This document shows positions 10,626 to 37,247 of a stretch of DNA of 64,000 nucleotides, in pieces. Every line of letters begins with the position of its first letter. The first letter of the stretch is position 1. The translations under genes were made by a program, and so were the position numbers. The notes beneath the pieces were generated by a model that worked only from the letters and a program-made list of their open reading frames with translations, did not search any database and was not told where the DNA came from. This DNA is from Magnetospirillum sp. WYHS-4 (GTDB taxonomy: Bacteria; Pseudomonadota; Alphaproteobacteria; Rhodospirillales; GLO-3). Location of the stretch: the NCBI GenBank assembly GCA_039908345.1, contig JAMOBD010000006.1, positions 2,329-66,328 of the forward strand, given 5' to 3'.

Positions 10626-11141
10626 ATGTCCTCCTTCGATGGGGTAAGCGCCTTTACGGGCTATGTGTCCGGCACCTATATGACCGTGTCCGAATTCCAA
10701 CCGGTGCCGAGTTGGGAAGGGCAGGCTGTACCCGTTGCTTCCAAGCGCGTCATCGAGGATACCGTCACCTTGAGCGACAAGGCCCAGTCCTACCTGGAGC
10801 AGAAGGCACGTGCCGGAACGGCGGAAGGCAAAGCCACGCCCTTTCGCAATCCCGACCCGGCGAACTTGGTGGGCGCCGATATGTCGGGCAAGGATTTCTC
10901 GGGCGTCGATTTGACGCGGGCTTTCCTATATCGGGCGAACCTAGCCAATGCGGATTTCTCCAAGGCGACACTCAAGGACGCCTGGATATCCGAATCCGAT
11001 GTGGCGGGAGCCAATTTCGAGGGCGCCGACCTGCGGGGAGCGAATCTGGCCAAGACCAAGAACCTGACCCGCGACCAGCTCAAGGATGCCCTGGTCGACC
11101 TTTCCACCATCCTGCCCTTCGCCCTGCGCCTGGAACGCTGA
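10626..11141 (+). CDS. pentapeptide-repeat protein
   Basis: 3' part of ORF 9789..11141. ATG 10626 preceded by GAAGGAGAGAAGGAA. Repeats such as ADMSGKDFSGVDLTRAFLYRANLANADFSKATL. Confidence 0.75.
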   Translation: MSSFDGVSAFTGYVSGTYMTVSEFQPVPSWEGQAVPVASKRVIEDTVTLSDKAQSYLEQKARAGTAEGKATPFRNPDPANLVGADMSGKDFSGVDLTRAFLYRANLANADFSKATLKDAWISESDVAGANFEGADLRGANLAKTKNLTRDQLKDALVDLSTILPFALRLER

Positions 11142-13746: not shown

Positions 13747-14187
13747 TCAGCCATTCTCTTCGCGCCAGTCGGAGCGCCAGCGGGCCTTGCCATGGACGCG
13801 CTCGGCCTCGCCGGACCGGTCTTCCAGGTCCGGAGCGAGAAGGTCGCCCAGAGCCGTCAGTTCGACAGCCACCAGGGCTTCGGTCTTGGCAAGGATCTCC
13901 CGATAGACGTCGACTATCCGCTGTCCGGTAGGAGTCAGACGGGCCCCCCCGCCTCTGGCACCGCCGAACTGGGTATCGGCCACCGGCAGGGCGAACGCAC
14001 GGTTCATCTCGTCGACCAGCATCCAGGCGCGGCGATAGGACATACCGGATCGCTTCGCCGCCTTGGAGATCGATCCCGTTTCCCCAATCCCTTCCAGCAA
14101 CTCGATCTTCCCCGGCCCCAGGGCGGAGAAAGAACAGAGCTTGATGCGCAACTTCACCGACCGGCCGGGTCCTTTCTTGCGGGTCAT
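13747..14187 (-). CDS. ModE N-terminal-like winged-helix (molybdenum-responsive) transcriptional regulator
   Basis: ORF 13747..14187. GSISKAAKRSGMSYRRAWMLVDEMN is typical of the ModE/LysR-type HTH. Lies directly upstream of modABC. Confidence 0.75.
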   Translation of the reverse strand: MTRKKGPGRSVKLRIKLCSFSALGPGKIELLEGIGETGSISKAAKRSGMSYRRAWMLVDEMNRAFALPVADTQFGGARGGGARLTPTGQRIVDVYREILAKTEALVAVELTALGDLLAPDLEDRSGEAERVHGKARWRSDWREENG

Positions 14188-14302
14188 CGTTCCTCGCCTA
14201 TCATCGGGGAATCATACCGTCGCAGGCCGGAGATGCAAGCCGGCAAGGGGTTGTTAACGATCTTCTGGCAGGCTGGCGGGTAACCTGAGGAAAGACCGCC
14301 CC

Positions 14303-14668
14303 ATGAAAAGCCAGATCGTCTACAAGGACCACCGCCGCAAGGACATGCGAATCCCGACGCCGGAACTGGCCCTGCTGGTCGACGGGCGGATCTGGCGCAC
14401 GTTGGACTGGAGTCTCGGCGGCTTCCTGCTGCGCCACTACCGTGGCCACCTGAAGGCCGGCGACCGCTTCGAAGTGCGAGGCATCGGGGGCATCGGCGGC
14501 GCTCTGGCCCCCGTCTTCCTGCGCGCCCGGGTCGTGCGGGTGGAACGGGGCGGCCGCTTGGCGGCCCAGTTCCTCGGACTATCCGAGGCTGGGTTCGAGA
14601 CCTTGGAAAGCCTGATGATCCACCGCGCGACGCTACACCACCAACCCGCCCATCACGCCATTCCATAG
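14303..14668 (+). CDS. PilZ-domain (c-di-GMP-binding) protein
   Basis: ORF 14303..14668. RRxxxR (RRKDMR) and DxSxxG (DWSLGG) motifs. Confidence 0.75.
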   Translation: MKSQIVYKDHRRKDMRIPTPELALLVDGRIWRTLDWSLGGFLLRHYRGHLKAGDRFEVRGIGGIGGALAPVFLRARVVRVERGGRLAAQFLGLSEAGFETLESLMIHRATLHHQPAHHAIP

Positions 14669-14680
14669 GCAGGCCGGGAA

Positions 14681-14709
14681 AGCGCCGGCTGCGACGGGAA
14701 TCCGGCGCT
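14681..14709. terminator. GC hairpin between convergent PilZ and cyclase genes (possible bidirectional terminator)
   Basis: AGCGCCGG-N13-CCGGCGCT. No clear U-tract. Confidence 0.3.
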
Positions 14710-14717
14710 GGGGTGCC

Positions 14718-16040
14718 TTAGGAAGCCGATCCGTGGTTGCAGTCGTTGGCTTTGCGGCAGCCGTCGCAAATGCGGGCCACTTCGTCGATATCGGGTGCCA
14801 GAGGACAAGGCAATTTGGTCAAGCGCCAAATCCTGACCTCCGAGTCCTCGGCGATATCCTTGCTTGCATAAGGAACCTTTTCGCCCCCGATATCGCAGGC
14901 GCGAAGGTCCTTGGCGAGTTCGTGATAGGCATTGCCCGACATCTGGATGATTCCGGCCTTGGCGGAATCGGACAGGCGGCAGGCCTCCACCACCCCGCGG
15001 CCGACGACAATGGGATTTTGCGTATGGTCGAGCCGCCAGTGGGCATCGGCGACGGAAATTCCGACGCCAGCCCCGAAGTCGGCGCGGTCATGATGGAGAA
15101 ACTCCCGCAGATCCTTCAGCAGGCACTCGACCGCCGCGATCAGGGCGCCGGCGCAGCGGACCGCCACCGTCACCGGGCTCTCCTTCTTGAGTTCCCTGAC
15201 TTCCTCGTCCAGGAAATGGACGATGATGCCGTCCCCGGTGAACTTGTCGAACACCCCAAGGTTCTGCCGGACGATGGTCGACAGGACCGTCAGCAACACA
15301 TCCATCCAGCAGGCGAAATGCTTGGGACTGTCGGCTTCCCGCATGGCGAAGGTCGATTTGCGCAGGTCGAGGGTCAGAGTGACGGTGCGGCGGCGCCCGT
15401 TCCAGGGCGGCAACAGGCGCCGTATCCCTTCCCGAGCCTTGCCGACATGGAGACTTTCGGAATCCCAATACCTGCGGGAAATCTCCGGCGCGAACCCCCG
15501 ATAGACGTTGCAGCGCTGGCGCATGGCCTCGATCAGAATCTCGGCGATGGTTACCCATTCCTGATAGTCGGTCTTGCTAAATGCTGCAGCCAAATCCAGT
15601 TCAGGAGCGCTCGTCGAAGGCAATTCATCGTATTTTGTGCCTTTCAACATAAACACCACGAATGCCTTGTCAGCGCGGCTACTCTGTGGCCACACGACAA
15701 CCATCTTGACACCGGAACCGCACGCCGAGCTTGTTATTGCCCGAATTTCATGGACATCCGTCTGCGGTACATTTTGCGAGGCGACTCGAACCGCAGCATC
15801 AAATATAGAAACAATTTTGTCCTTATATTTAATGCGAAACGCAGAGCGCAACGATATGAAGCTGTAACTCCACCATGGCAACCAAACTGAGATTCCGTCT
15901 ACATTGAAGGTTCCTAGGATGCTCCTGATGGCGCGAGACAGATTAATGTCGACATCTGTTGTGTGCCCAATCTGTCCCGTAAGCGTAGACACAATAACAG
16001 GTACGGTCTTCAGGCAATTATTTTGGTTAATGCGTGTCAT
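14718..16040 (-). CDS. class III nucleotidyl-cyclase-domain protein with an unknown ~220-aa N-terminal domain
   Basis: ORF 14718..16052 trimmed to ATG 16040 (ATGA overlap with the REC gene stop). C-terminal half has LTLDLRKSTF, FDKFTGDGIIVHF, GAGVGISVADAHW and VVGRGVVEACRLSDSAKAGIIQMS, matching the cyclase homology domain layout. Confidence 0.75.
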   Translation of the reverse strand: MTRINQNNCLKTVPVIVSTLTGQIGHTTDVDINLSRAIRSILGTFNVDGISVWLPWWSYSFISLRSAFRIKYKDKIVSIFDAAVRVASQNVPQTDVHEIRAITSSACGSGVKMVVVWPQSSRADKAFVVFMLKGTKYDELPSTSAPELDLAAAFSKTDYQEWVTIAEILIEAMRQRCNVYRGFAPEISRRYWDSESLHVGKAREGIRRLLPPWNGRRRTVTLTLDLRKSTFAMREADSPKHFACWMDVLLTVLSTIVRQNLGVFDKFTGDGIIVHFLDEEVRELKKESPVTVAVRCAGALIAAVECLLKDLREFLHHDRADFGAGVGISVADAHWRLDHTQNPIVVGRGVVEACRLSDSAKAGIIQMSGNAYHELAKDLRACDIGGEKVPYASKDIAEDSEVRIWRLTKLPCPLAPDIDEVARICDGCRKANDCNHGSAS

Positions 16041-16567
16041 ATTTTCACACAAGACACTATGAAATCTATAGAATTGGCAATTCTTGCAACAAAGCTAACG
16101 ATATTCACGGGTTTATGAAAAATATTGTCGCTTTTTATTTCTTGAACAACCACATCAGGGAGATCTTGAGGATATGCCGTCAGAAAGAAAATTTGATGCG
16201 TTGGTCGATCCTTAATTCCCTGCAAGACATTGATGCCAACCGGCTCCATGCCATTTTCTGTCTGACGGAACAGGTCCAGGATGATCAGCGCCGGCGCCCC
16301 ATCGAGCTTCTCCACCTCCATGGTAAAGTTCTCAGTCTTTTCGAGAATCCGGTAACCGATTCGAATCTTCTGGCCGTAGCGTTCGAGCGTCAGGTCGGCG
16401 CTCAGGTCATCATCGGCTTCCCGAAGGGCATCGTCGTCATCCAGCAAGGACGGATCTTCCGCACAGTAATGGTCATAAAGGGCAGCGGGGATCCAGGAGA
16501 CGACCTCCGGCTCGTCCTCGTAATGCAACACCATGACTTGGATCGGGGAAGGGGAGGTTTCGGTCAT
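16037..16567 (-). CDS. stand-alone response-regulator receiver (REC) protein with an acidic insertion
   Basis: ORF 16037..16567. VMVLHYEDEP (acidic pair), ALIILDL (phospho-acceptor Asp), IFFLTAY (Thr) and FHKP (Lys) match CheY-type REC landmarks. ATGA overlaps on both sides. Confidence 0.7.
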   Translation of the reverse strand: MTETSPSPIQVMVLHYEDEPEVVSWIPAALYDHYCAEDPSLLDDDDALREADDDLSADLTLERYGQKIRIGYRILEKTENFTMEVEKLDGAPALIILDLFRQTENGMEPVGINVLQGIKDRPTHQIFFLTAYPQDLPDVVVQEIKSDNIFHKPVNIVSFVARIANSIDFIVSCVKI

Positions 16568-18855
16568 AGGTATCTCGGCGCCTTGGGAAGGAAGATGGTG
16601 AAGACGGTCAACGCACCGTCGGTTCCGGTACGGCCACGCAGGGTCGACTGGATCTCGATCCGGGCCTGGGAATCGTGGGCTTGCAGGATCTTCCGGGCGA
16701 CCGCCACCCCCAATCCCGTTCCCGGACGCCGGGCGTCGGGATTGGCGGCATGGAGGCGCCGAAAGGGTTCGAAAATGGCCTCCCGCTGCTCTTCCGGGAT
16801 GTGATCGCCCACGTTGGACACGGCAATGGCCCAGCCGCCGGCCCGATACGGCTTGACGTCGATCTGTACGATCTGATCCCGATAGGAATACTTGACCGCG
16901 TTTTCGATGATGTTGAACAGCAGGATGTAGACGAGATCGCGATCCATCTTGCCGGTTCGCGAAGGCTTGGGCAGCATATGACCATTGACGATGATGTCGA
17001 GCCCCCGCCGCTCCGCCTCCGGCCGCAGGCAGAGGGTGACCTCGGCAATCAGGTCGAGGATGTCGCAGTCGATCACCTTCAGCGACTCCGGCGCGATGCG
17101 GTCCAGGATGAAGCGGGATTCGTCGACCAGGATGCGCGTCTTCTCGGCGAACAGGCGGGCCCGCGCCAGGCTTTTATGGAACCGGGCACTATCGACCAGG
17201 CGCCGGAAAGCCAGCGAGGGGTCCCGGTCCTTGAAATTCCGCCACCTAGTGTTGGCCACGGTCATATGGCCGATCATTCCCTGCAGCCCCGAGCGGACAT
17301 TGTGGCGAATTTGAATCAGGTCCTCGACCTTGCTTTTCATGTGGTGCTTGTCGGACAGGAAGCGGGCGACTTCCCGGCAGAGGTAGCGGACGATGTCCCG
17401 CTTGTACCCCGGCAGCCAGGGGTCCATGATGCCGACCGCCATGACCGCCTTCCGATTGTCGATATCGAAAAGCTTCTGAATCAGAACGGCCTGGCCGTTC
17501 GGCAGATTCGCCACCCCGTCGGGCCAATGGACGGTGCGGCGCAGGTCGTCTTCCAGGGTCTGGAACCGAGCGTCGCTCAGCGTGACCTGCCCGTCCGCAT
17601 CCACGATGGCGCTGAACTGGGTTTCCGGAATGGTTTCCGCCAACAGGTCGAAGGCCACCCTGGGCTCGAAGTTGTCGGAAGTCCCGATTTCCGCCAGTCG
17701 CCGCGCAATGCCCTGCAGCGCCCCTTGCAGGGTCGCCACGGGAACGATGTTCGACAAGGCTTCGGCGATCTTCTCCACCATTTTCTGATCGGTCTCGCTG
17801 AAGGCCGTGTAGACGCGGCTGAGGGGATTCTTCTTGAACGCCTGAATCAGGCAGATCACGCCCTTTTCCGACTTGTCCGGCTCCAGCCCCACCGCATCCA
17901 CCAGGACCGGCACACACATCCAGGACAGGCGATGTCCGGGGCGCAGTACACTCTGGAATCCGGAGGGCGTGGGCCCGAACAGGGTCTCCATCTCGGCGAC
18001 GTCCAACCGATCCCGCACCCGCACCGATTTCCTGTTCTGCCAAACCTGGCGGAGAAACGGGTTGTTTTCGATGGGGGGAACCCGAAGCTTGGGCGGATGT
18101 GGCGCCGAATACGCGACAACCCCGGACGCCTGGGAGATGTGGGGATAGGATATCGTGCAAAGCGCAGCCCGCGTATCGCGCCGCACGATGGCGGCCGCCG
18201 CTTTCAGCGTCGCATCGATGTCGCCGCGACCGCCTTCCAGGGAGTTCAGTTCCGAAAGCGCGTTCCAGATGCGATGGTTGCGGCTGTTCTCGATCTTGCC
18301 GGCGATGGCCGTGACCAGGGCGCGGCAGGCCTCCGGCAGGCTCTCGCTACGGTGGGGCATGACGATCTGGATCACCCCCAGCGGCTTCCCCGCCTTTTCG
18401 GGATCGTGGCTTTCCAGCGGCAGGAATTCTTCGGCAAGGGCCGTAACATCGGCGCCCTTCCCCGCCAACCATCCCCCGATAACCGCGTTGCCCCGGAAGG
18501 ACAACCGGCCATGAAGCTTGTCCATGTCCGCGGCGTCGGCATCTCCTAGGCACAGGTGGCATCCTTCCAGCCCGCGAGCCACGACCCCGATGGACGCGCC
18601 GCCCTTGTCCAATTCCTTGGCGTAGACCTGATCCAGGCGGATTTCCGGCCCGGAAGCGCCGCTGTCGAACAGCCACTGGAAAAGAAACACCCGAGGCGTT
18701 TCCAGGAGATCGGCCATGAATCTCAGGAGTTCAAGGCGTTCCTCGGTCAACGAGACGCTGGAAAACGGCTGGCTGATCAGTGAAACCAACTTATCGAGGT
18801 TAAGCGTCGCACCGCCGCTTTTTCTCGGGGACAATGAAAACATCCCACACCCCAT
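16564..18855 (-). CDS. soluble sensor histidine kinase with a long GAF-like N-terminal region
   Basis: ORF 16564..18855. No hydrophobic TM segment seen. H-box IQIRHNVRSGL, N-box FNIIENAVKYS, G-boxes SNVGDHI and GTGLGVAVARKI. Start could also be ATG 18843. Confidence 0.8.
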   Translation of the reverse strand: MGCGMFSLSPRKSGGATLNLDKLVSLISQPFSSVSLTEERLELLRFMADLLETPRVFLFQWLFDSGASGPEIRLDQVYAKELDKGGASIGVVARGLEGCHLCLGDADAADMDKLHGRLSFRGNAVIGGWLAGKGADVTALAEEFLPLESHDPEKAGKPLGVIQIVMPHRSESLPEACRALVTAIAGKIENSRNHRIWNALSELNSLEGGRGDIDATLKAAAAIVRRDTRAALCTISYPHISQASGVVAYSAPHPPKLRVPPIENNPFLRQVWQNRKSVRVRDRLDVAEMETLFGPTPSGFQSVLRPGHRLSWMCVPVLVDAVGLEPDKSEKGVICLIQAFKKNPLSRVYTAFSETDQKMVEKIAEALSNIVPVATLQGALQGIARRLAEIGTSDNFEPRVAFDLLAETIPETQFSAIVDADGQVTLSDARFQTLEDDLRRTVHWPDGVANLPNGQAVLIQKLFDIDNRKAVMAVGIMDPWLPGYKRDIVRYLCREVARFLSDKHHMKSKVEDLIQIRHNVRSGLQGMIGHMTVANTRWRNFKDRDPSLAFRRLVDSARFHKSLARARLFAEKTRILVDESRFILDRIAPESLKVIDCDILDLIAEVTLCLRPEAERRGLDIIVNGHMLPKPSRTGKMDRDLVYILLFNIIENAVKYSYRDQIVQIDVKPYRAGGWAIAVSNVGDHIPEEQREAIFEPFRRLHAANPDARRPGTGLGVAVARKILQAHDSQARIEIQSTLRGRTGTDGALTVFTIFLPKAPRYL

Positions 18856-19056
18856 GCCGCATGCCGCACCACTATTGACTATAACAATTTCGCAATAAAA
18901 TTCCAGAGGTTAGTTCATGTGCGATTTTACGCCCTTTTGGCTTGCATTCGCAGCCAAGGAAAGGAGGCCGGGCGACAGGCCGACGCGCGCGCTTCAGACA
19001 CGAATAGGGGAGGAGCACCGGCCCCTCCCCTTCGCAAAGCAGGTCCGAAGACCCTA

Positions 19057-26232: not shown

Positions 26233-26273
26233 GCGAGGCGATTCGTAATCAGCCGTTGATTGCTGATGACACA

Positions 26274-26279
26274 TATAAT
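26274..26279 (+). promoter_or_regulatory. candidate -10 hexamer (TATAAT) just outside the left inverted repeat
   Basis: Perfect TATAAT 55 nt upstream of ATG 26335. No well-spaced -35 found (TTGATT is only 12 nt away). Confidence 0.3.
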
Positions 26280-26313
26280 ATACCATGCGATGGAGTTTAG
26301 GGTATGTATGAAA

Positions 26314-26339
26314 GATAACTAAGAATTATCGAAGATGGA
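26314..26339. repeat. left copy of a perfect 26-bp inverted repeat (GATAACTAAGAATTATCGAAGATGGA)
   Basis: Exact reverse complement of 32005..32030. Contains the ATG (26335) of the STAND gene and an internal dyad GATAA-N7-TTATC. Confidence 0.95.
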
Positions 26340-29300
26340 AGGTCACATTTACAGTCCTCAGGACCTACTGGATATGCGGTGGGACCGTTTTGAGACGCTG
26401 GTCGTTGATACGATCCGTCAATTATACGGCCAATACCAGATTTCGACCGAGCAAACGTCGCTTAGCCATGATGGCGGCCGGGATGCAGAGTCCCATCATG
26501 TGCTGGCGATCGGACTTGGCGAAGACCTTTCTGTGAGCGTAAGAGTATTTCTCGAGGTAAAGAAAAGATCGACCGAAAATGTTGGCAAAGGTGATATTGG
26601 ATCTCATCTTATAGACGCCTTCGCCAACAAAGTAACGAAGATCATTTTCGTCACTAATAGTGATTTTTCAGAAAATTTACCTTTGTGGATTGGCGCGTTT
26701 TGCGCACCGCTTAATATTCAGTTCAGCTTGATTAATGGCGTACGCCTTATTAAACTGTTAAACAACGAGATTGGAAATCCACAGGTTCCAGATAGGACAG
26801 TCGATGATCAGATCATCGGCAAGGTAACCTTCTCGCTTTCTCCAACCGATGCGCTTCCGAGCAGCGCCAAATGCATGGTACGGCCTGATCGGCCAGTTTT
26901 TGCCATCATTGATGTCGCCATCGGTGAAGACGTGGCGCCGTTCTATGCCAAATTATCCATGAGGCTGATCGATGAGGACGCGGCCTCGATATTCGGCATA
27001 AATGACACGCAGTCACAGCCAATTCTCCTGTCTCCGGGCACACGCCGGCGCTGGGTTTTCGCCATTTGGCCTGGCCTGGCCGGACACTGGGACGGCTGTG
27101 ATTTCAACATCGACCAGGAAGGTTTCCCGAGCCCGTTACGGCTGTCGGTCATCAATTCCTTCCAGGTCTCTGAAATCGGCCTTCAGCCGATGATGGTCGG
27201 TGGTCAGAAGACCGCCTACAAGCAGATCCAATCCGCATTGAATACTTGGCGCAACACTGGTGGAAGCGCCCTTCGCATATTGCTTTCCCCCGGCGGTTTA
27301 GGCAAATCGTTTCTGATCGGATGCCTTAGGCGGGATATCCAGTCATGGGGTATCAGGACGTTGATGCTTGATGGGGAAGCCATCGAGTCGGATACGGCAC
27401 TGATAACGGCTAGCTTCACCACCTTGTTTCCGTTTGCACGCAACTCTTTCGAGCCGGGGCTGAAACCAGCCCTGCTCCGCTGGCTGGAATGCTTGGATCT
27501 GTCGCCGCAGCTACGCCGGCTCGTTGCCGATGATCTGTGTGATTCCGGCAGGTTACGGGCCGATAATTACAATCCGGCTATTCGGGCTCAATTATTGGCG
27601 GCCCTTCTCGCCGAGGCCGGAGCGGCACGGGGCCTGGTATTCATTTTCGAAGACCTTCACAAGGTTCCTCCCTCTGTTTTGTCCCTGCTGGCGGACACGC
27701 TGCGCCAACTCCGCTCGACCGGAATGGGCAACATCTTCCTTTTGCTGACATCGCGTCCGTTCTCTGACAGCGGCACCCACGATCTTGCTCGCGACTGGCT
27801 GCAGCGGCTTCAGAAAATCTCGGCGCTGGCCGAGGATGCGCTGCTGCATTTGCGCCCCCTTCAAGACGATGAAGCCCGGCAGCTTCTGCGCAGCACGGTG
27901 CCCACTCTGTCGGAGGCGCAGACTGAAAGCATTATCCAGCAAGTGGGAACATCGCCGTTCAATCTTCGAGAAGCGGTTCTTTATCTGAAGCTGTTGGGGC
28001 TTTTGGGATATGTCGGAACCGGGCAGACCCCGGTTCTTTTACGGCCGGACAAGTTAAACGCGCTGCTTGGTCATGACGGGTTGAAAACCACCACGCAGAA
28101 AAGACTGCAGGTGTTCTTTAAGAACCAACCCTCATGGCTGCAAAAGATGGTTGAGGCAGGCGCCTGTTATGGTCGTCAGTTTCCATTCCGGGAGACCGCC
28201 GCCGTCGCCCTCATGCCGGACAGCGAAGACGCACTGGACGCTTTGGATGAATGCGCTCGTTGGAGCATCGTCCTTCCGGTGCCTGGCTGCGCTGAGTTGA
28301 TCGAATTCGACCATGATCTGGTGCGCGCGGCCCTGCTGAGCGGATTGGCTCCGCACAAGCATCAAAGACTGGCCAGTGGATTGCTGGCCGAGCTGGAAGC
28401 TGACGCCGACGCTTTGCTGCTGTCGTCGCTTGCTTATCAGGCAGGCCAGGCGGAAAAGGCCTTCACCTTCGCCCGAACGGCTGCCAAGGCTGGCAGCGAA
28501 CGGGGGCGTCCTGCGGATGCATTGCGCGCCAACTACATTGCATTACTGACACTCGATCCGGCATGGGCGAGCCAGAATGAGGGGGATGACAGCTGGATTG
28601 ATCTCGCGATTCAGGTCGCAGCTCCGGCTCGCCGCGACTTCGACAATTGGCAGGCACGCGACCGTGAGGCGCTGGCAATCCTGCTGGATAATCTTCAAAG
28701 CCTGGGAAGCGTCTCGTCGGGAAGTGGACGATTGAGCGATGCCATCCTCAGCGAAGCGAGAATGGTCGCCGAACGGCTGCAAGACCATGGATGCATTGCC
28801 GCTCTCACGGCCATGCAGGGGCGAATGCTGTTCGAGCAAAATGACGTCGCCAAGGCCTTGGCTCACCATGAAGAGGCCGAGCGGATTTTCAACGAACAGG
28901 GGCTGATGCGAAATATTGAGCGTGCTGAAAATCTGATCCGATTGGCGATCTGCCTTCGACAGAACGGGCGCACGGAGGATTCCTTGAACGCCCTTGGCCA
29001 GGCAATCAGTCATCGGCCGAAAGCCGCCTGGTCACTGCTGAACAAGGTCCGCTCGAACCTGGGAGCCATTTATCTGCGATCAGACTGGACCGTCGTACGC
29101 TATCACTGGGAACGGCAGCTCCGCTCTGCCAGGGTCCACGGCCTGCTGTCGCGCCAGGCTCATGCCCTTGCCAGCCTATCCTTTATCAACCTGTTTGACG
29201 GGCGTTTAGCCGAAGGCCGCCGGCAGGCAGAGGAAAGTCTTCTGATCGCCCGCCGACACGAGATGGAAAACACCGCGCTGCGGTGTGATCTCAACCTTTC

Positions 29301-29748
29301 CGTTGCCTGGCTGATGGAGGGCAATGCCGAAGCGGCACTGCAATGCTTGGGCGAAGCGGAAGCCATTGCTTTGCGGCATAATGTCGGCCGCCGTCTCTGG
29401 CGGGTATATGCCAATCTCGCCACCACCTGGGAGATACTGGGTGATGACGCCAAGGCGGTCGCGCATGACATCCAGACACTGACCTGCCTGGATGCGACCA
29501 ATTGGGAAGCGGACAGGATTGCCCGTCATGGGCGCGAGCTTCTGCCATTGATCAATCTTGCGTCACGCACTCTGGCGAATCCAGACACTTATGGGGCTGC
29601 ATTGGCGCTGATGAATCCCGCATGCCGTGACGGGTTGCTTCTGCTGGCGCAAAACCTGGAAGATGGTCAGGCCACCGTCTTATCCCCCGTCAATCTGAAA
29701 TATCGTGTCCCGATCTATGGGCGTCACCGTTTCCTCATCACCGAATGA
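26335..29748 (+). CDS. STAND NTPase with an N-terminal Mrr/PD-(D/E)xK nuclease-like domain and C-terminal TPR-like repeats (Avs/AVAST-like)
   Basis: ORF 26335..29748. N-terminus has FETLVVDTIRQLYG, GGRD(50), LE(74)VK(76), IIFVTNSDFS and LINGVRLIKLL, which fits the Mrr_cat layout. Walker A SPGGLGKS (res ~318-325), Walker B LVFIFEDLH (~434-442), LLLTSRP. The C-terminal ~500 aa are helical repeats. Confidence 0.8.
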   Translation: MEGHIYSPQDLLDMRWDRFETLVVDTIRQLYGQYQISTEQTSLSHDGGRDAESHHVLAIGLGEDLSVSVRVFLEVKKRSTENVGKGDIGSHLIDAFANKVTKIIFVTNSDFSENLPLWIGAFCAPLNIQFSLINGVRLIKLLNNEIGNPQVPDRTVDDQIIGKVTFSLSPTDALPSSAKCMVRPDRPVFAIIDVAIGEDVAPFYAKLSMRLIDEDAASIFGINDTQSQPILLSPGTRRRWVFAIWPGLAGHWDGCDFNIDQEGFPSPLRLSVINSFQVSEIGLQPMMVGGQKTAYKQIQSALNTWRNTGGSALRILLSPGGLGKSFLIGCLRRDIQSWGIRTLMLDGEAIESDTALITASFTTLFPFARNSFEPGLKPALLRWLECLDLSPQLRRLVADDLCDSGRLRADNYNPAIRAQLLAALLAEAGAARGLVFIFEDLHKVPPSVLSLLADTLRQLRSTGMGNIFLLLTSRPFSDSGTHDLARDWLQRLQKISALAEDALLHLRPLQDDEARQLLRSTVPTLSEAQTESIIQQVGTSPFNLREAVLYLKLLGLLGYVGTGQTPVLLRPDKLNALLGHDGLKTTTQKRLQVFFKNQPSWLQKMVEAGACYGRQFPFRETAAVALMPDSEDALDALDECARWSIVLPVPGCAELIEFDHDLVRAALLSGLAPHKHQRLASGLLAELEADADALLLSSLAYQAGQAEKAFTFARTAAKAGSERGRPADALRANYIALLTLDPAWASQNEGDDSWIDLAIQVAAPARRDFDNWQARDREALAILLDNLQSLGSVSSGSGRLSDAILSEARMVAERLQDHGCIAALTAMQGRMLFEQNDVAKALAHHEEAERIFNEQGLMRNIERAENLIRLAICLRQNGRTEDSLNALGQAISHRPKAAWSLLNKVRSNLGAIYLRSDWTVVRYHWERQLRSARVHGLLSRQAHALASLSFINLFDGRLAEGRRQAEESLLIARRHEMENTALRCDLNLSVAWLMEGNAEAALQCLGEAEAIALRHNVGRRLWRVYANLATTWEILGDDAKAVAHDIQTLTCLDATNWEADRIARHGRELLPLINLASRTLANPDTYGAALALMNPACRDGLLLLAQNLEDGQATVLSPVNLKYRVPIYGRHRFLITE

Positions 29749-31465
29749 CGACTTTGCAGAAAGCCTCTTGGTAGCTGGCGAGCAGTTGCATATCCCATGA
29801 CCGGATACGCCAATCCCCGCGGGCAAACCGCCATTGAGCGTTGAACAAGGGAAAAATCGCCATCCACAGAGCGCCCAGGAACAGGTCCTCATCGCTTTTC
29901 GCCAATTCGGCCAAGCGGCAAAGCATGGCATAGGGGGATGGGGATGACTGGTGGGCATGCTGGTCGTGGAACCAATGCGCAAGATCGTGCGGCCCCGCAT
30001 AGAAACCGGCATGATCAAGATCGCAAACAGCCGGACTGCCATCAAGACGACGCATAAGATGTTCGCGTTTCATGCTGCCGTGCTGGAGACGCGGCAAGAC
30101 ACGCGACAATGGCCGACAATGGGCAAGAAAGCGCACAAGCCCCTTCGCGCGCAGGGCGAACTCGGGCGGAAACGACCACGCATCTCGCTTCAACGTTTCC
30201 TCAAGGCGGAATAATTCCACCTGCGGATGGCATTTGCGCAAGCGCAGCCGCCCCCCTTTTAAGCATTGAGCACTTAACTGTGCGGCTGCCCGGTCGAACT
30301 GCTGCACGGCTTCCTGCATATCGCTGGCCACCGACATGCCGTCCAGGGCGGACAGATAAGCCGTTGCCCCATCATCCTTCACCACGAACAGAGTCTGGAA
30401 CTGCCGGGAAGCGGCCATCATGAGTTCCTCAGCTACAGCCGGCTCGGCTTCATGATCTTCCAGCAGTTTCTCCTGGACCAGCAAACCTGCTTCCTCGTCC
30501 GCCGCGACAACACGTGGGGCAACCGGCACTGCCGTCAGAAGGCAAGCCATCTTCACCCGCTCCGGGGCGATGGGGGGGGCATCCATCTCAAGCGGGCTGG
30601 GCACCAGACAGGTCAAGGAGGGAGGGCGCTCTTGATGAATCTTGAGGAAGAATTCGCCTTTCTGCGATGAGATAAGGAAGCTGGGCGTCGGACTGGACGA
30701 GACATCTTTCCAGCTGTCGATCCGCCCTCCCAACAACCTCTCCACCAAAGGCCGGCGAGCCTCTATCAGGTTATCATTGATGGATAAGGTTGCCCCGGGA
30801 AGCGAGGGATCGCTGTTCGACGGCGCCAGAAGTTCCCCGTAAAGCCCGAGATAGCGTTCCGCCACCGCATCGAGTGAAAAACGATCCCGACTCCACAGCG
30901 CGGCGTTGTTTCCCATCCAGCGGCCCAAACGGTCGTTTCTGACAAACTGCGCCAGGGCGGCAGCAAGTCCTGGCGCATTCAGCCGATCCACCAAGTAACC
31001 GTTCACGTCATGGGCAATGATGTCCTGAAGCCCTCCCGTCCTGGTGGCGACCACGGGCGTTCCGCACATCATCGCCTCAACGGCGACCATTCCAAACTGT
31101 TCGCGCAAGGAGGGGAGACAGACGACGGTACTGCGGCTGTAGATTTCGGGCAGGGAATAACCATCGACCCGGCTCCATATCTCAAATCGGCCGGCTTCGA
31201 TGGCATGACGTATATTTTCCGTAGCACGCAGCAAGGTGTTCTCAAGATCGGCCGCCTCTTCTGCCGTTCCGCCGACAATGCGCACGCGGAATGGCGGAAG
31301 ATCCACCGATAGCAAAAGCTCCACCGCATCAATGAAAACAGCCAAGCCCTTACGGGAATCGACCAGTCGTCCGACGTATGAAATCGTCGGCACTTTCCGG
31401 GCGACGGCTAAATATCTGGGAGTCGATTCCATAGGGGATGATTGAAACTGATTGTGGTCTGACAT
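29738..31465 (-). CDS. GT4 glycosyltransferase C-terminal half fused to an APH/choline-kinase-like (protein-kinase-fold) domain; downstream fragment of a frameshifted gene
   Basis: ORF 29738..31465. YVGRLVDSRKG and SLREQFGMVAVEAMMCGTPVVATRTGG (GT1/GT4 C-domain). Then FFLKIH, LLVQEKLLE and HGSMKREHL...CDLDHAG (kinase-like, Asp of HGD replaced). Confidence 0.65.
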   Translation of the reverse strand: MSDHNQFQSSPMESTPRYLAVARKVPTISYVGRLVDSRKGLAVFIDAVELLLSVDLPPFRVRIVGGTAEEAADLENTLLRATENIRHAIEAGRFEIWSRVDGYSLPEIYSRSTVVCLPSLREQFGMVAVEAMMCGTPVVATRTGGLQDIIAHDVNGYLVDRLNAPGLAAALAQFVRNDRLGRWMGNNAALWSRDRFSLDAVAERYLGLYGELLAPSNSDPSLPGATLSINDNLIEARRPLVERLLGGRIDSWKDVSSSPTPSFLISSQKGEFFLKIHQERPPSLTCLVPSPLEMDAPPIAPERVKMACLLTAVPVAPRVVAADEEAGLLVQEKLLEDHEAEPAVAEELMMAASRQFQTLFVVKDDGATAYLSALDGMSVASDMQEAVQQFDRAAAQLSAQCLKGGRLRLRKCHPQVELFRLEETLKRDAWSFPPEFALRAKGLVRFLAHCRPLSRVLPRLQHGSMKREHLMRRLDGSPAVCDLDHAGFYAGPHDLAHWFHDQHAHQSSPSPYAMLCRLAELAKSDEDLFLGALWMAIFPLFNAQWRFARGDWRIRSWDMQLLASYQEAFCKVVIR

Positions 31466-32009
31466 CAGGATACAGCCTCTCTAACGCATCTTTCTCGTTA
31501 CGGCTCACGCATATGAGGGTGTCGGCCTCGTTGAAAACACGCCGCTCCCAAACATCCCTGACGCCATCGAAACAAGAGGCTTCCTCTCCCAGCTCGATGC
31601 GGGTCCGCCCCAGTGAAAGCAAGTGGTGGACATGGCGTCGAGCAATAACGGGGACCAGTCCGATGCCAACGGCACCAGACAGCCAGTTGCTGGTTTGAAC
31701 GATATCGAAGGTCTTCCCTGAAAGCAGACCGGCAAGCGCATCGGCAAGTTCGTCCCGCAAACTTCCCATTGAATGGTGGTCCATTTCCGTCGGGCTGCCC
31801 ACTTCCAGCCGATATAGACGGCAAAGGGGGCCTAGCTCCTGTATCCGCGGCTTACACGAGCTATTCAACCGAGTGACAATGGTCAGGTCATGGCCACGAC
31901 GCACGAATTGTCGAGATAGGTCGAAAAAGAAGGCATGTGAGCCCCCGAATCGCCCTGCGCCTGGTGGGTCGAAAGGGTCATCAGTAAGGGTAAGCAGCAA
32001 AATATCCAT
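31350..32009 (-). CDS. GT4 glycosyltransferase N-terminal half (upstream fragment of the same frameshifted gene)
   Basis: ORF 31350..32009. MDILLLTLTDDPFDPPGAGRFGGSHAFFFDLSRQFVRRGHDLTIVTR resembles MshA/SPS-type GT4 N-domains. Ends IIPYGIDSQIF, then leaves the frame that continues in ORF 29738..31465. Confidence 0.65.
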   Translation of the reverse strand: MDILLLTLTDDPFDPPGAGRFGGSHAFFFDLSRQFVRRGHDLTIVTRLNSSCKPRIQELGPLCRLYRLEVGSPTEMDHHSMGSLRDELADALAGLLSGKTFDIVQTSNWLSGAVGIGLVPVIARRHVHHLLSLGRTRIELGEEASCFDGVRDVWERRVFNEADTLICVSRNEKDALERLYPDVRPQSVSIIPYGIDSQIFSRRPESADDFIRRTTGRFP

Positions 32010-32030
32010 CTTCGATAATTCTTAGTTATC
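32005..32030. repeat. right copy of the perfect 26-bp inverted repeat
   Basis: TCCATCTTCGATAATTCTTAGTTATC is the reverse complement of 26314..26339. Contains the ATG of the GT gene (32009) and the GAT AAC TAA end of the recombinase gene. Confidence 0.95.
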
Positions 32031-32969
32031 ACTCCCCCCTCTCCTCCTCACGGCCCCCTCCATCACCTCGCGGAGGCTGGTGTCGCTGACGTGGGTGTAG
32101 ATTTCGGTGGTGGCCAGGTTGGCGTGGCCCAGGAGTTTCTGGACGAAGCGGATGTCCACTCCCGCCTCGATCAGGTGGGTGGCCGCGGTGTGGCGGAGCA
32201 TGTGGGGCGTGATGCGGCGGGTAAGGCCGGCGTCCTCGGCCGCGCGGCGCAGCAGGATGCGCACCGTCTGCGGCGTGGCGGTGGCGCCGCCGGAGGTGAG
32301 GAACAGGCGCTCGCCCAAGGGGCCCGTGGCCGGGCGTGCGGCCACATAGGCCCGCAGCAGGCGCCGGGTGGGTTCCTCCACCAGAAATGCCCGGCGCTCG
32401 CGGTTGCCCTTGCCGATGATCCGGATGGTGCCGTCCTCCAGGTCGATGTCGCTCAGATGCAGTGCCGTCAATTCCCCCACCCGCATTCCGGTCGCGTAGA
32501 GCATCTCCACGGCCAGCCAGGCGGTCAGGCGTTCGAATCCGCCGGGCGAAAGGCGGGCCGGCCGGCCGGGAGGAGGAAGGGGCAGACGCAGCGTCCGGAA
32601 CAGGGCCGCCATCTCGCCACGCGTCAGCCCGCGCGGCAGCCGGCGGGGCAGGCGGACCTGAAGGTCCAGGCGGTGGAAAGGGCTGGCCGGAATCTCGTCC
32701 TCCAACTCCAACCAGCGGTACATGGCCTTCAGGCAGGCGATACGGCGCTTGGCGCTGGCCGGCTTGAGGCCGCGCCGGTCTTGCAGATGTTCCAGATAAC
32801 CGCGCAGATGCTCGCGGTCGCAAGCCGCCAATGGCCGGTCGGGCCCCGCGTAGGCCCGGTATTCCTCCAGGTCCTGGGCGTAGGCCCGTAGCGTGTTGGC
32901 CGACAGGCCCTTGGCCACGCGGCAATGGCGCAGGAAGGCCGCGCAGGCCTCCGCCACCGTCTCTGTCAT
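32022..32969 (-). CDS. XerC/XerD-family tyrosine site-specific recombinase
   Basis: ORF 32022..32969. SAM-like N-domain plus catalytic landmarks ATGMRVGEL (R), KGNRER (K), HMLRHTAATH (HxxR) and LGHANLATTEIYTH (H, Y). Confidence 0.9.
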   Translation of the reverse strand: MTETVAEACAAFLRHCRVAKGLSANTLRAYAQDLEEYRAYAGPDRPLAACDREHLRGYLEHLQDRRGLKPASAKRRIACLKAMYRWLELEDEIPASPFHRLDLQVRLPRRLPRGLTRGEMAALFRTLRLPLPPPGRPARLSPGGFERLTAWLAVEMLYATGMRVGELTALHLSDIDLEDGTIRIIGKGNRERRAFLVEEPTRRLLRAYVAARPATGPLGERLFLTSGGATATPQTVRILLRRAAEDAGLTRRITPHMLRHTAATHLIEAGVDIRFVQKLLGHANLATTEIYTHVSDTSLREVMEGAVRRRGGSDN

Positions 32970-34137: not shown

Positions 34138-34234
34138 TCCTGGTGCCGGATGGTCAAGACGGTACATCCCGTATATGATGACCGTCTAAAATACGCCCCC
34201 GAGGTTGCGGCACGAGGACAAGGAACGCGACGCG

Positions 34235-35035
34235 ATGACCACCGATCAATACCGGATCGCCAAGAAACCCTACTACCTGCCGGTGAGCGACGAAGTCGCC
34301 TTGTTCGAGGCGGCCTATGCCGCGCGGCTGCCGGTGATGCTCAAAGGGCCGACGGGCTGCGGCAAGTCGCGCTTCGTCGAATACATGGCATGGAAACTGA
34401 AGACGCCGCTGGTCACCGTGGCTTGCAACGAGGACATGACCGCCTCCGACCTGGTCGGGCGCTTTCTGTTGGATGCCTCGGGCACGCGATGGCAGGACGG
34501 GCCCTTGACGGTGGCCGCGCGCATCGGCGCCATCTGCTATCTGGATGAGGTGGTCGAGGCTCGCCAGGACACCACCGTGGTCATCCATCCCTTGACCGAC
34601 CATCGCCGCATGCTGCCGCTCGACAAGAAGGGCGAGGTCATCCAGGCCCACGACGACTTCCACTTGGTGATTTCCTACAACCCCGGCTACCAGAGCCTGA
34701 TGAAGGACCTCAAGCAGTCGACCAAGCAGCGCTTCGCGGCGCTCGATTTCGACTACCCGGACGCCAAGCGGGAGGCCGAGATCGTTGGCCGCGAGACCGG
34801 GCTCGACAAGGCTCTCTGCGCCAGGCTGGTCAAGATCGCCCACAACGCCCGGGCGCTCAAGGGCCACGGCCTGGACGAGGGCATCTCGACCCGCCTTCTG
34901 GTCCATGCCGGCAAGCTGATCGGGGCGGGGATCGATCCCGTCGCGGCCTGCGACATGGCCTTGGTACGCCCCCTGACCGACGACGCCGACCTGCGCGCCG
35001 TGCTTTCCAGCGCCGTGAGGATGGTCCTTGGCTGA
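34235..35035 (+). CDS. CbbQ/NirQ/NorQ-family MoxR-type AAA+ ATPase
   Basis: ORF 34205..35035 trimmed to [14 protein letters not shown]. Walker A GPTGCGKS and Walker B CYLDEV. Confidence 0.85.
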
Positions 35036-37247
35036 TCCCGCCGCCCTGCGCCCGCGCCTACGCTGCAATGTCGCCAAGATCGACGACATCTTTCCCGGCT
35101 GCCTGAAGGAGGCCGAGGGAGTCCTGTCGCCGGCCGGAATCGAGGCTTGGCTGGACGGCGCGGCCAAGGTCTGCGGCCTGGGCCGCGGTACCGAACTGGT
35201 GCTCTATTTCCTGGAAGAGATGCCGGGCGTCGTTCGCTTGACCGACGAAAGCGTCGTGGCGCGCGTCGCCGACACCGCCGAGATGCTGTCGGACGAACTT
35301 TGCGGTACGGCGATCAATCCTTTTCTCGCCACCCTGCCGGCGGTGGCCCGCCGCCTGGCCAGCGCCGCCCTGCTGGAACATTGGCTGGAGGCGGTGGCCC
35401 GGATGGCCCGCGAGGCCAAGGACGGCTTGGTACCCCTGTTCGGCCACGTGGGGCCCATGCTGGATCAACTGTCGGTGGCGGGGCTCGGCAACTGGATCGA
35501 TTACGGCATCCGCGCCTACCGCGACCAGCCCTACATGATGGGCGAGTTCTTCGGCCTGAAGACCGCCGATTCCTTGGCTGTCTTGCAGCGCGAGCGCCAT
35601 GGAACCCTGTTCGCCGACCATGCGCGGGAGATGGAACTCTGGCTCCGCGCCCTCTGGGGGCTGGAGGATGCCTTCAAGCCCTATTCCCTCGCCCTGGACG
35701 AGAAGCGCAAACCCGTTCCCCACCTGGACAAGCAGGGCTTCCACCTGCCCGACGTCTACGATCCGCTGGACGGTATAACCGGCATCGACCGCTACCGGGC
35801 GCAGGCGGCCCATCTGGCCGCGCACCGACTATGGTCGGAACCCTATCTGGGCGACAACTTCAGCGCCTTCCAGCACCTGCCCATCGAATGCTTCGAGGAT
35901 GCCCGCGTCGAGGCCCTGGCCATGCGGCGCTATCCCGGCCTGCGGCAGCTCTGGCAGGCGCTGCACCCCGCCCCGCGGGAAGGCGCCTGCCCGCCCGGCT
36001 GGTCCTGCATCCGCCACAAGCTGACGCTGCTGTCGCGCGCCATTCTCGATCCGGACCATCCCTACAGCGACCCCATGGTGCACGAGTACGCCAAGCGCTT
36101 CCACCAAGCCTTCGCCGCCGATCCCCATGACCGGTCCCTGAGCACCCGCCTGGGGGTGGAATGGCTGACCGACAACTACCAGCACGATTTCCGCAAGTCC
36201 CAGGTCTGGTTCGCCGACACCTTCGTGTCGTATCGCGACGACAACCGGTATCTCTGGCTGTTCCTGGAAGACGCCAAGAACGAAGACGAGTTCCATTCCG
36301 ACCACGGCGCCCGCGACCCCTGGGAGAAGGATGAGCGGGAACAGGACGTCCTGCCCCCCAGTCACTATCCGGAATGGGATTACCGGGCCCAGGCCTACCG
36401 TCCCGATTGGGCGACCGTTTACGAGGCCATCCAGCCGCCCGGCGCGGCCGCCGACATCGATGCCCTGCTGGAGCGCGATCAACTGGTCGCCAAGCGGCTC
36501 AGGAAGGCGGTGGACCAGTTGAAGCCCCACCAACGCACCCGCCTGCGCTACCAGAAGGAAGGCGACGAACTGGACCTGGAGATGTTGATCCGTGCCGTCA
36601 CCGATCACCGCTCGGGCGCGGAGGCCGATACCCGCATCCACGTCCGCCACGTGCCGGGCGGGCGCAGCATCGCGCTGCTGCTGCTGCTCGACCTGTCGGA
36701 ATCGGTGAAGGATACTCCGCCGGGCCTGGACCGCAGTATCCTCACCCTGGCCCAGGAGTCGGTCTCGCTGCTGGCCTGGACGGTGGAGGAACTGGGCGAC
36801 AGCTTCGCCATCGGCGGCTTCGCCTCCAACACCCGCCATGATGTGCGCTATACCCATTTCAAGGGCTTCGGCGAGGACTGGGGCCACGAGTCCAAGGCCC
36901 GCCTGGCGGCCATGCAAGCCGGGTTGTCGACCCGCATGGGGGCGGCGTTGCGCCACGCCGGGCGCTATCTGGAACGGCGGCGCGAGGAAAAGAAGATCCT
37001 GCTGGTGCTCAGCGATGGCGAACCCTCCGACGTGGACGTCGTCGACGACCGCTACCTGAAGGCCGACACCCATGCCGCGGTGGCGGAACTGAAGCGCAAG
37101 GGCGTCGATACCTATTGCATCACCCTGGACCCGCGCGCCGACGACTATGTCGGCGAGATCTTCGGCCGGGCCCGCTACACGGTCATCGACCGCCTGGACC
37201 GGCTGCCCGAAAAGCTGTCGCGCCTGTTCATGAGCCTGACTCGATAG
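35028..37247 (+). CDS. CbbO/NorD-family von Willebrand factor A protein (partner of the CbbQ-like ATPase)
   Basis: ORF 35028..37247 (TTG start overlapping the upstream stop). C-terminal VWA domain with [15 protein letters not shown]. ~739 aa, i.e. CbbO-sized. Confidence 0.8.

Follow-up and report, generated by a model that had tools for sequence, protein, structure and literature searches.

A STAND nuclease gene and a split glycosyltransferase-kinase as opposed arms of a probable recombinase-invertible cassette in Magnetospirillum

Among the STAND NTPases of bacteria the Avs (AVAST) antiviral proteins have been described as Avs1-5 and, in a 2026 survey that distinguishes 198 defense-associated STAND clades, as a wider set of about 90 families (PMC13581612). 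STAND/NLR-like sensors are a major subject of immunity research, and are usually treated as constitutively available single genes. DNA inversion is associated with other phage-facing loci, such as the type I restriction-modification hsdS "epigenetic invertons" and shufflons, which generate population heterogeneity in phage-facing traits (PMC7672463, PMC9881135); integron gene cassettes carrying defense systems have also been reported (bioRxiv 10.1101/2024.07.02.601686), and GT4 glycosyltransferases have been predicted to be effectors of conflict systems by Kaur et al. 2021 (PMC8195603; PF20706). Here we describe a locus from a 64,000-nucleotide (nt) stretch of contig JAMOBD010000006.1 of Magnetospirillum sp. 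WYHS-4 (the window, by which we mean the whole of this stretch), in which a gene for a STAND protein with an Mrr-type nuclease domain converges upon two overlapping genes for a GT4 glycosyltransferase with a kinase-like domain. Together they make up a 5.7-kb segment of two convergent arms, enclosed by inverted dif-like sites and adjoined by a tyrosine recombinase gene. This segment is, with high probability, a cassette that a recombinase can invert; the reading of the whole as a recombinase-flipped defense cassette is one that we favor with distinctly more reserve.

The STAND gene and the two open reading frames (ORFs) of the opposite arm, GT-C and GT-N, are bracketed by a perfect 26-nt inverted repeat, GATAACTAAGAATTATCGAAGATGGA (26314-26339 and 32005-32030). 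Both copies are positioned at gene 5' ends: the left copy includes the ATG of the STAND gene (26335), and the right copy includes the start codon of GT-N (32009-32007) together with the stop codon of the recombinase gene (32024-32022). The core of the repeat conforms to the pattern GATAA-N7-TTAT, which occurs in the 64-kb window at these two sites only, where 0.04 occurrences would be expected by chance. Almost all complete related loci have the pattern GATAA-N7-TTAT(C) as an inverted pair, 0-10 nt ahead of both start codons, the exceptions being a coral-metagenome locus in which one arm reads AATAA (L005; related loci are numbered with the prefix L) and a cassette with a SIR2 gene in which the called starts are 43-90 nt away (L007). 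The arms of the site are conserved, whereas the central 7-nt spacer varies among loci, with ten variants seen (CTAAGAA, CTAGGAA, CAGAGAA, CTAAAAA, CTAGAAA, CTGGGAA, CTTAATA, CTAGAGA, CTGTTAA and TCGGGGA), and is always identical inside each pair, as is expected of the crossover region of a tyrosine recombinase, in which the spacers of the two partners must match. The sequence-only reading of the STAND gene had treated it as a free-standing unit, a view that has to be replaced, as the gene is instead one arm of a conserved, repeat-bounded cassette with a flanking recombinase.

The site also appears to serve in translation initiation. Its spacer is purine-rich (AGGA, AAGA, GAGA, GGGGA) and lies at Shine-Dalgarno distance from the start codon, and in several cassettes the ATG is formed by the end of the inner arm (TTATG). 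As the site adjoins the starts and supplies the purine run of the ribosome-binding site, a promoter would not fit inside the cassette, and the AT-rich left flank is hence the only possible location of a promoter for the STAND gene as assembled. A scan of the region for terminators gave nothing informative. In base composition the cassette stands apart from its surroundings: the G+C content of its genes is 0.55-0.58, compared to 0.70 for the recombinase gene and the flanks and about 0.67-0.70 for the genome, with an abrupt shift at both cassette ends. Neither a tRNA gene nor direct-repeat att sites were found flanking this low-G+C island, and a classical integrative island is therefore unlikely.

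The Xer-like recombinase encoded outside the right-hand site is intact: its catalytic residues R163, K187, H256, R259, H282 and Y291 are invariant in an alignment of ten recombinases (A3), and public records annotate it as XerD-like. The ten aligned recombinases form two clades that match two gene layouts. In layout (a), found in the window, L005, L008, Azospirillum and Methylobacterium, the recombinase gene is co-directional with the proximal arm and reads into the cassette, and in layout (b), found in L001, L002, L004, L007 and L010, it is divergent from the cassette. In layout (a) the recombinase stop codon lies within the site in four of the five loci and the next start codon follows 0-10 nt past the site; a common transcript of the recombinase gene and the proximal arm is therefore almost certain. 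Judging from this arrangement, the recombinase, GT-N and GT-C of the window as assembled almost certainly form one transcription unit, to which the STAND gene does not belong.

Between the divergent-type recombinase gene and the cassette there is a conserved block, GAGTTTAAT(G/A)A ... TTCAAGTAAA, which is present with either arm proximal (L001, at about 9120-9165; also L004, L007 and L013; alignment A4) and could be a fixed promoter/operator or an accessory recombinase-binding site. Rfam returned no RNA family for this intergenic block or for the region of the window cassette. The recombinase family also includes members that are not linked to a cassette. The recombinase of L019 is 76% identical to that of the window, and the cassette is lacking; right after its stop codon (10925-11043) there is a relic half-site, GATAACTAG, followed by a 48-nt hairpin with 96% complementarity, so that L019 could be an empty or decayed platform. 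A further relative, in L021, has neither a cassette nor a half-site.

Comparison of related loci provides the case for inversion. Within layout (b), orthologous recombinase genes (65-69% nucleotide identity) adjoin the STAND end of the cassette in L001 and the glycosyltransferase end in L010 and L004, while the cassettes of L001 and of the latter two are collinear at 73-76% identity and the recombinase lies on the strand that a simple inversion predicts; in total, the recombinase-proximal end is the STAND end in four loci and the glycosyltransferase end in three. L011 and L003 are 100% identical over 6364 nt, yet at the contig end of L011 the STAND-side site is joined to the reverse complement of the right flank, where L003 has its left flank. 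The STAND end of L034 is likewise joined to the reverse complement of its right flank, over at least 43 nt, and L035 and L036, which encode the identical protein, carry a different flank at this position. Three public contigs, L030 (5717 nt), L031 (5742 nt) and L033 (5761 nt), contain the cassette and nothing more, both of their ends falling precisely on the outer edges of the repeats, and in about 10 of the 68 GT-C clusters the longest contig measures 5.72-5.81 kb. Logan assemblies use k = 31; L033 comes from a JGI assembly, not from Logan. Since the repeats (18-26 nt) are shorter than the assembler k-mers, a break at both of them implies that the reads continue in two alternative ways. The L030 contig shares 96.5% identity with the window cassette and encodes a protein identical to WP_076400475.1 from the cultured species Insolitispirillum peregrinum. 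As far as assemblies can tell, both orientations occur in nature, and the flipping would presumably be performed by the neighboring recombinase.

The module is conserved well beyond the window. A word-indexed protein search recovered 30 clusters of homologs of the STAND protein, and an exhaustive profile search 89 clusters (at 50% identity) with E < 1e-30, about 60 of them full length. Every homolog with a readable neighborhood is part of a convergent STAND/GT-C/GT-N unit, which is accompanied by a tyrosine recombinase wherever the contig reaches that far. The module ranges over Alphaproteobacteria, Acidobacteriota, Bacteroidota and several metagenomes, with loci in an uncultured acidobacterial Paludibaculum (L002), in metagenome-assembled genomes (MAGs) of Pyrinomonadaceae (L003) and Chitinophagaceae (L004), in a coral metagenome (L005) and in several soil metagenomes, and it extends to distant carriers such as L017, with a STAND identity of 25%, and L034, which has the divergent family member P0040. 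In L008 the homology to the window locus begins exactly at the site, the distal flank being no part of the conserved unit; the cassette genes of this locus share 75-83% amino acid (aa) identity with those of the window, compared to 49% for the recombinase. The neighbors of related loci include GmrSD, SIR2, patatin, TIR and LmuB_C proteins.

The same design is also found with other cargo, and in all such cassettes a STAND NTPase is opposed to one or two group-transfer enzymes. The metagenomic locus L007 (3481-15798) has two tandem cassettes beside one recombinase gene, followed by GmrSD: in the first, a SIR2-NACHT protein of 1251 aa faces two enzymes, a carbamoyltransferase and a 2OG-Fe(II) oxygenase (spacer CTAGAAA), and in the second an Mrr-STAND protein faces a glycosyltransferase (spacer CTGGGAA). 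The chromosome of Azospirillum argentinense Az39 (CP007793; L020, 5025-14333) also contains two cassettes, in which a Ddl-like ATP-grasp enzyme is opposed to a STAND-TPR protein of 816-818 aa (spacers CTGTTAA and CTAGGAA), and plasmid pMRAD01 of Methylobacterium radiotolerans JCM 2831 (NC_010510; L032, 9903-13460) has one with an ATP-grasp enzyme, a STAND-TPR protein, the spacer TCGGGGA and a TIR neighbor. In these ATP-grasp cassettes the STAND proteins span 815-818 aa and the ATG falls within the inner arm of the site. A search of a plasmid collection recovered no homolog of the STAND protein and a single relative of the recombinase, which led to pMRAD01; further plasmid searches recovered no second ATP-grasp cassette and no close relative of the divergent-type recombinase. 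When viral contigs were scanned for the site, 8 matches came up, all of them single and none paired, and these look like chance occurrences.

Turning to the arms themselves, the ORF of the STAND protein that the sequence-only reading delineated is present exactly as it was described (26335..29748 on the + strand, with an ATG start and 1137 aa), and the motifs quoted there stand at the residues given: FETLVV (19-24), DGGRD (46-50), LEVK (73-76) and IIFVTNSDFS (103-112) in the nuclease part, and GGLGKS (320-325), LVFIFEDLH (434-442) and LLLTSRP (469-475) in the NTPase part. Its proposal of an effector-NTPase-sensor plan is borne out by Pfam matches to Mrr_cat, AAA_16 and TPR families and by the secondary structure of an AlphaFold2 model. 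In the Pfam scan Mrr_cat (PF04471) matches residues 12-114 with 28.8 bits, above the gathering cutoff of 21, AAA_16 matches residues 295-461 with 28.8 bits, slightly under its cutoff of 32.6, and TPR_12, TPR_1 and TPR_2 match residues 828-896, every one of them below cutoff. In an alignment of 23 STAND-protein sequences with 40-75% identity to the window protein (A1), D46, G48, D50, E74 and K76 of the nuclease and G321, G323, K324, S325, E439, D440, T472, S473 and R474 of the NTPase are invariant, leaving the catalytic D50/E74/K76 triad as well as the Walker A, Walker B and sensor-1 motifs intact; this invariance indicates that the motifs are under selection and are not chance matches.

For the stretch of about 170 residues between nuclease and NTPase that had been listed as unassigned, the Pfam scan gave no family; the model (mean predicted local distance difference test score, pLDDT, 68.9) has here an all-beta domain of 11 strands at residues ~160-280 with a pLDDT of about 80. 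Residues 510-1137 are confidently helical, with pLDDT values mostly of 80-95 in the repeat region. The protein is a four-part one, with Mrr-type nuclease, all-beta domain, P-loop NTPase and TPR-like repeats. An identical protein in the public record, from the MAG of Magnetospirillum sp. WYHS-4, is annotated as "restriction endonuclease". Some members of this small family (P0036, P0044 and P0050; 1389-1442 aa) have an additional N-terminal extension of about 220-275 aa ahead of the Mrr domain. At the other end, the residues R1132, F1133, L1134, T1136 and E1137 (window 29725-29748) are invariant family-wide in A1 and lie where the gene shares sequence with the 3' end of GT-C on the opposite strand, which could reflect a functional tail or a dual-coding constraint.

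As for the suggestion that this is an Avs-like protein, the domain plan agrees with it and the sequence matches no described Avs family. The PADLOC v2 models gave a single match at E <= 1, that of mREase_II to the Mrr region (E 0.015), and none of the Avs1-5 models in that set match; a profile search against all PDB sequences gave nothing above noise, and the 18 weak matches that it listed up to E 10 include no STAND protein. An NCBIfam search likewise assigned the protein to no family. In a Foldseek search with the full-length model 6mfv, a STAND-TPR protein from an archaeon, ranks at the top, and generic TPR proteins, including those of the LGN type, dominate the matches below it; no entry among the top 50 is described as an Avs protein, with the NTPase region of the query too poorly modeled (pLDDT <50) to place its clade. 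At the level of sequence, membership in any described Avs family is thus not detectable. The 2026 survey names Mrr among the defense effectors that were used as seeds for defense-associated STAND proteins, and under this broad definition an Mrr effector fused to a STAND module qualifies the window protein as defense-associated (PMC13581612). On balance we predict that it is probably an immune sensor.

GT-C, on the opposite strand, converges on the STAND gene, and the 3' ends of the two overlap by 11 nt; its true start is probably at 31393. The first ~195 residues of its product are the donor-binding half of a GT4 glycosyltransferase, and the remaining ~350 adopt a kinase-like fold. In the Pfam scan it matches Glycos_transf_1 (E 6.5e-30) and PF20706 (E 2.6e-15), and a profile search of the PDB recovered the C-terminal halves of SPS, MshA and GlgA. 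The AlphaFold2 model (pLDDT 88.4) finds by Foldseek PimA (root-mean-square deviation 3.0 A) and MshA, as well as the choline kinase LicA over 357 columns (E 2e-7). Membership in GT4 is supported by the presence of both Rossmann halves of the GT-B fold, as separate ORFs in GT-N and GT-C. In the kinase-like domain the usual HGD...N of kinases is replaced by H462-G-S464-M-K466-R-E-H469, and D482 and D484 are conserved (alignment A2), so that, judged from these residues, the domain may be a pseudokinase or have a non-canonical chemistry. The split of GT4 into two ORFs is kept in all loci, the halves being in different frames with an overlap of usually 44 nt (window 31350-31465; also L001, L002, L008, L030, L031 and L033). 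A sequencing frameshift can be rejected as its cause, since the two-ORF layout recurs in all loci; the split could represent two subunits or a programmed +1 frameshift. Unsplit relatives of ~780-800 aa with about 30% identity also exist (P0368, P0370 and P0418).

Table 1. Features of the cassette and its borders in the window (positions in nt of the window)
Feature	Position	Strand	Basis
AT-rich (39% GC) non-coding flank outside the left site	26233..26313	.	
Left inverted-repeat arm; core GATAA-CTAAGAA-TTATC at 26314-26330	26314..26339	+	
Mrr-beta-STAND-TPR protein, 1137 aa	26335..29748	+	
Mrr_cat PD-(D/E)xK nuclease domain, residues 12-114; D50, E74, K76	26368..26676	+	Pfam and invariance
All-beta domain, residues ~160-280	26812..27174	+	AlphaFold2 model, without Pfam family
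STAND P-loop NTPase; Walker A GGLGKS 320-325, Walker B EDLH 439-442, TSR 472-474	27217..27759	+	AAA_16 and invariant motifs
Helical arm and TPR-like repeats, presumed sensor, residues ~484-1121	27784..29697	+	AlphaFold2 and Foldseek
GT-C: donor-binding GT4 Rossmann half and kinase-like domain, 575 aa	29738..31465	-	Pfam, PDB profile search, AlphaFold2, Foldseek, alignment A2
GT-C, kinase-like domain, residues 225-575	29741-30793	-	
GT-C, GT4 C-terminal half	30821-31399	-	
GT-N: N-terminal GT4 Rossmann half, separate 219-aa ORF overlapping GT-C	31350..32009	-	Pfam Glyco_trans_4_4, Glyco_transf_4
Right inverted-repeat arm; core at 32014-32030	32005..32030	-	
Xer-like tyrosine recombinase, 315 aa, outside the cassette, reading into it	32022..32969	-	Pfam Phage_integrase and SAM_1

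Elsewhere in the window, 1.2 kb past the recombinase gene, there are genes of host-like G+C content for a CbbQ/NorQ-type AAA_5 ATPase and for a VWA protein of 739 aa (34205-37247). In L005 the recombinase is neighbored by a MoxR-type AAA_5 ATPase, a DUF3150 protein and a CobT-like VWA protein, and the resemblance of the two neighborhoods may be coincidental. A second stretch of lower G+C content (0.55-0.60) at 14000-18900 contains an ORF of 444 aa that matches nothing in Pfam, and a gene for a protein of 763 aa whose only recognized domain is a C-terminal HATPase_c.

These observations suggest how such a cassette might work. The Xer-like recombinase would act on the inverted dif-like sites and flip the whole two-armed cassette. 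If transcription enters the cassette from outside only, each flip would swap the arm that is joined to the expression signals on the recombinase side; in the orientation of the window, the glycosyltransferase arm would be wired to the recombinase and the STAND gene would face an unrelated AT-rich flank. That orientation decides which arm is expressed, and hence that the cassette is a reciprocal expression toggle, is a serious possibility which we place a little short of an even chance. Once expressed, the STAND protein would by analogy act as the Avs proteins do: its repeat domain would bind a trigger, the protein would oligomerize in an ATP-dependent manner, and the nuclease would be released against DNA. 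It is conceivable, if rather doubtful, that "two-faced" immune cassettes form a widespread class, in which a flip of the promoter-less segment decides whether the one expression site serves a STAND sensor or a group-transfer enzyme (a glycosyltransferase-kinase, a carbamoyltransferase with an oxygenase, or an ATP-grasp ligase). Were this the case, a clonal population would split into two mutually exclusive states, and a Pgl-like logic of marking and sensing would become possible, in which enzyme-on cells tag molecules of invading or progeny phages or their own surface, and sensor-on cells detect the tag and fire the nuclease.

Several points weigh against this reading of the cassette as a flipped defense device. 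The evidence for inversion is comparative and assembly-based, and run SRR4235382, which carries the I. peregrinum protein, may not come from a pure culture. All five layout (a) loci were assembled with the enzyme gene proximal to the recombinase, which suggests that flipping may be rare or biased there. A consensus scan found no sigma-70 promoter in the region. The Azospirillum cassettes are flanked at both ends by co-directional genes, so that both arms might be transcribed in either orientation and a flip would have no on/off effect, and an effector domain is missing from the STAND proteins of the ATP-grasp cassettes, which hints that STAND protein and enzyme may cooperate and need co-expression. 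The Mrr and NTPase cores are modeled by AlphaFold2 with low confidence, the NTPase part with a pLDDT <50, and PADLOC recognizes no component of the cassette, the partner enzymes included; a role in defense against phages or mobile DNA is suggested by the GmrSD, SIR2, patatin, TIR and LmuB_C neighbors.

The last-named features of the Azospirillum and ATP-grasp cassettes would also fit a different arrangement, in which the STAND protein and the glycosyltransferase-kinase constitute one co-expressed two-component system with promoters in both flanks, and flipping is neutral or tunes dosage. The pairing of STAND protein and enzyme in four cassette types speaks for such a system, as does the proposal that GT4 domains are conflict-system effectors that are sometimes fused to STAND modules (PMC8195603). 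We nevertheless regard it as unlikely: with a distal flank that is not conserved and homology that begins at the site, a promoter there is not built into the unit, the convergent genes with overlapping 3' ends favor transcriptional interference, and the window STAND protein has a nuclease effector of its own, while a dedicated recombinase and matched spacers kept across phyla argue that flipping is selected. The repeats might alternatively serve mainly in mobility, either by making the cassette exchangeable between platforms of recombinase and site or as transposon-like terminal inverted repeats. The sharp drop in G+C content at the sites, the better conservation of cassette genes than of the recombinase in L008, the cassette-only contigs, the presence of several cassettes beside one recombinase and the relic half-site of L019 could all be accommodated by this explanation, which is however quite improbable as the principal function, because a pair of inverted sites offers no route to the excision of a circle, the recombinase is encoded beyond the repeats, the joining of one flank to both cassette ends is predicted by inversion and not by transposition, and no copies were found in the plasmid or viral collections. 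Mobility may be compatible with flipping as an additional, slower process.

Two further accounts concern the STAND protein itself. It could be a non-immune regulator of the MalT/AfsR type, controlling a glycan or small-molecule pathway of the partner enzymes; its NTPase is of the AAA_16 type, some homologs have a precomputed TPR_MalT match, the closest structural match 6mfv is a non-defense archaeal protein, and the partner enzymes resemble biosynthetic ones. Yet neither Pfam nor NCBIfam reports in it a helix-turn-helix or other DNA-binding output domain, the feature that the sequence-only reading had named as the mark of a MalT/LuxR-type regulator, and the invariant catalytic residues of the Mrr domain, the SIR2 effector in a sister cassette and the defense-gene neighbors make a regulator of this kind very unlikely. 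Least probable of all, to the extent that we give it hardly any weight, is a free-standing Avs-type antiviral gene to which repeats, recombinase and glycosyltransferase are incidental, as the Avs-like domain plan would allow; the rarity of the motif by chance in the window runs counter to it, and so does a four-gene module that, together with its site pair, is kept by nearly all complete loci examined, in different phyla and at STAND identities as low as 25%.

If the flipped-cassette reading holds, some bacteria control a costly, self-destructive receptor by DNA inversion, and the sensor is functionally linked to an enzyme arm. The switch would be a compact one, with a 17-nt site that combines crossover region, ribosome-binding site and sometimes start codon, and with a single recombinase, and the cassette could serve as a natural two-output genetic toggle. 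Three carriers are cultured strains: Azospirillum argentinense Az39 and Methylobacterium radiotolerans JCM 2831, for which complete genome or plasmid records exist, and Insolitispirillum peregrinum. We found no prior description of an invertible STAND/enzyme cassette in the literature covered, which did not extend to subscription-only articles and the supplement of the 2026 survey; the main text of that survey contains neither "recombinase" nor any word starting with "invert" (PMC13581612), and "recombinase" is absent from the main text of PMC8195603.

With the Avs proteins the window protein shares the N-terminal nuclease effector, the STAND P-loop NTPase and the large C-terminal TPR-like region, and there is further likeness in that some Avs proteins carry Mrr-type effectors and that loci related to the window cassette sit in defense islands. 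Unlike them, it has an extra all-beta domain between nuclease and NTPase, is short at 1137 aa, and belongs to a family whose genes invariably have a convergent GT4-kinase as partner and recombination sites around the pair. The GT4 arm resembles the predicted conflict effectors in its match to PF20706 and its linkage to a STAND NTPase (PMC8195603), but consists of two overlapping ORFs, has a kinase-like domain attached, and is opposed to the STAND protein in a flippable segment rather than fused to it. Like defense-carrying integron cassettes, the cassettes described here bring promoter-less defense-related cargo of foreign G+C content, at times in arrays, beside a resident tyrosine recombinase. 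They are nonetheless not integron cassettes, as attC hairpins are lacking, the sites are 17-nt dif-like cores in inverted and not direct orientation, each cassette holds a pair of convergent arms, and the recombinase belongs to the Xer-like and not the IntI-like type.

The closest parallels for the site and its enzyme are the XerC/D-dif and single-Xer systems, in which the SAM_1 plus Phage_integrase layout and the length of ~315 aa are the same. The dif core of Escherichia coli reads ...CATAA-TGTATA-TTATG..., and both have ATAA and TTAT as inner half-arms, separated by a spacer of 6-8 nt; cassette sites differ in being inverted pairs 3.3-6.4 kb apart around cargo genes, the predicted outcome being inversion and not dimer resolution or integration. 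Promoter invertons, such as fimS with FimB/FimE and the capsule promoters of Bacteroides, likewise depend on a recombinase flip and give reversible phase variation, but there the promoter flips, whereas in the cassette the genes would flip and the promoter must stay. Expression-site switching of the latter kind is known from the vsa and hsd loci of Mycoplasma pulmonis and the SusC/D clusters of Bacteroides fragilis, and the switch proposed for the window would work likewise. In the hsdS invertons and shufflons, too, an adjacent tyrosine recombinase acts on inverted repeats at the 5' ends of alternative units, with fixed expression signals outside the flipped DNA (PMC7672463, PMC9881135); the window cassette is distinguished from these by swapping two complete unrelated genes and not alleles of one gene, and by a repeat that is a 17-nt core upstream of start codons. 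A systematic search for inversions in the literature admitted only repeats of 22 bp or more, one copy of which had to lie in a coding sequence, and would therefore have missed cassettes of the window type, which screens for long repeats inside genes in general overlook. What appears to be undescribed is the exchange of two complete unrelated genes, one of them for an NLR-like sensor, by way of a 17-nt site that doubles as translation-initiation region, and the recurrence of this same design with varied cargo across phyla.

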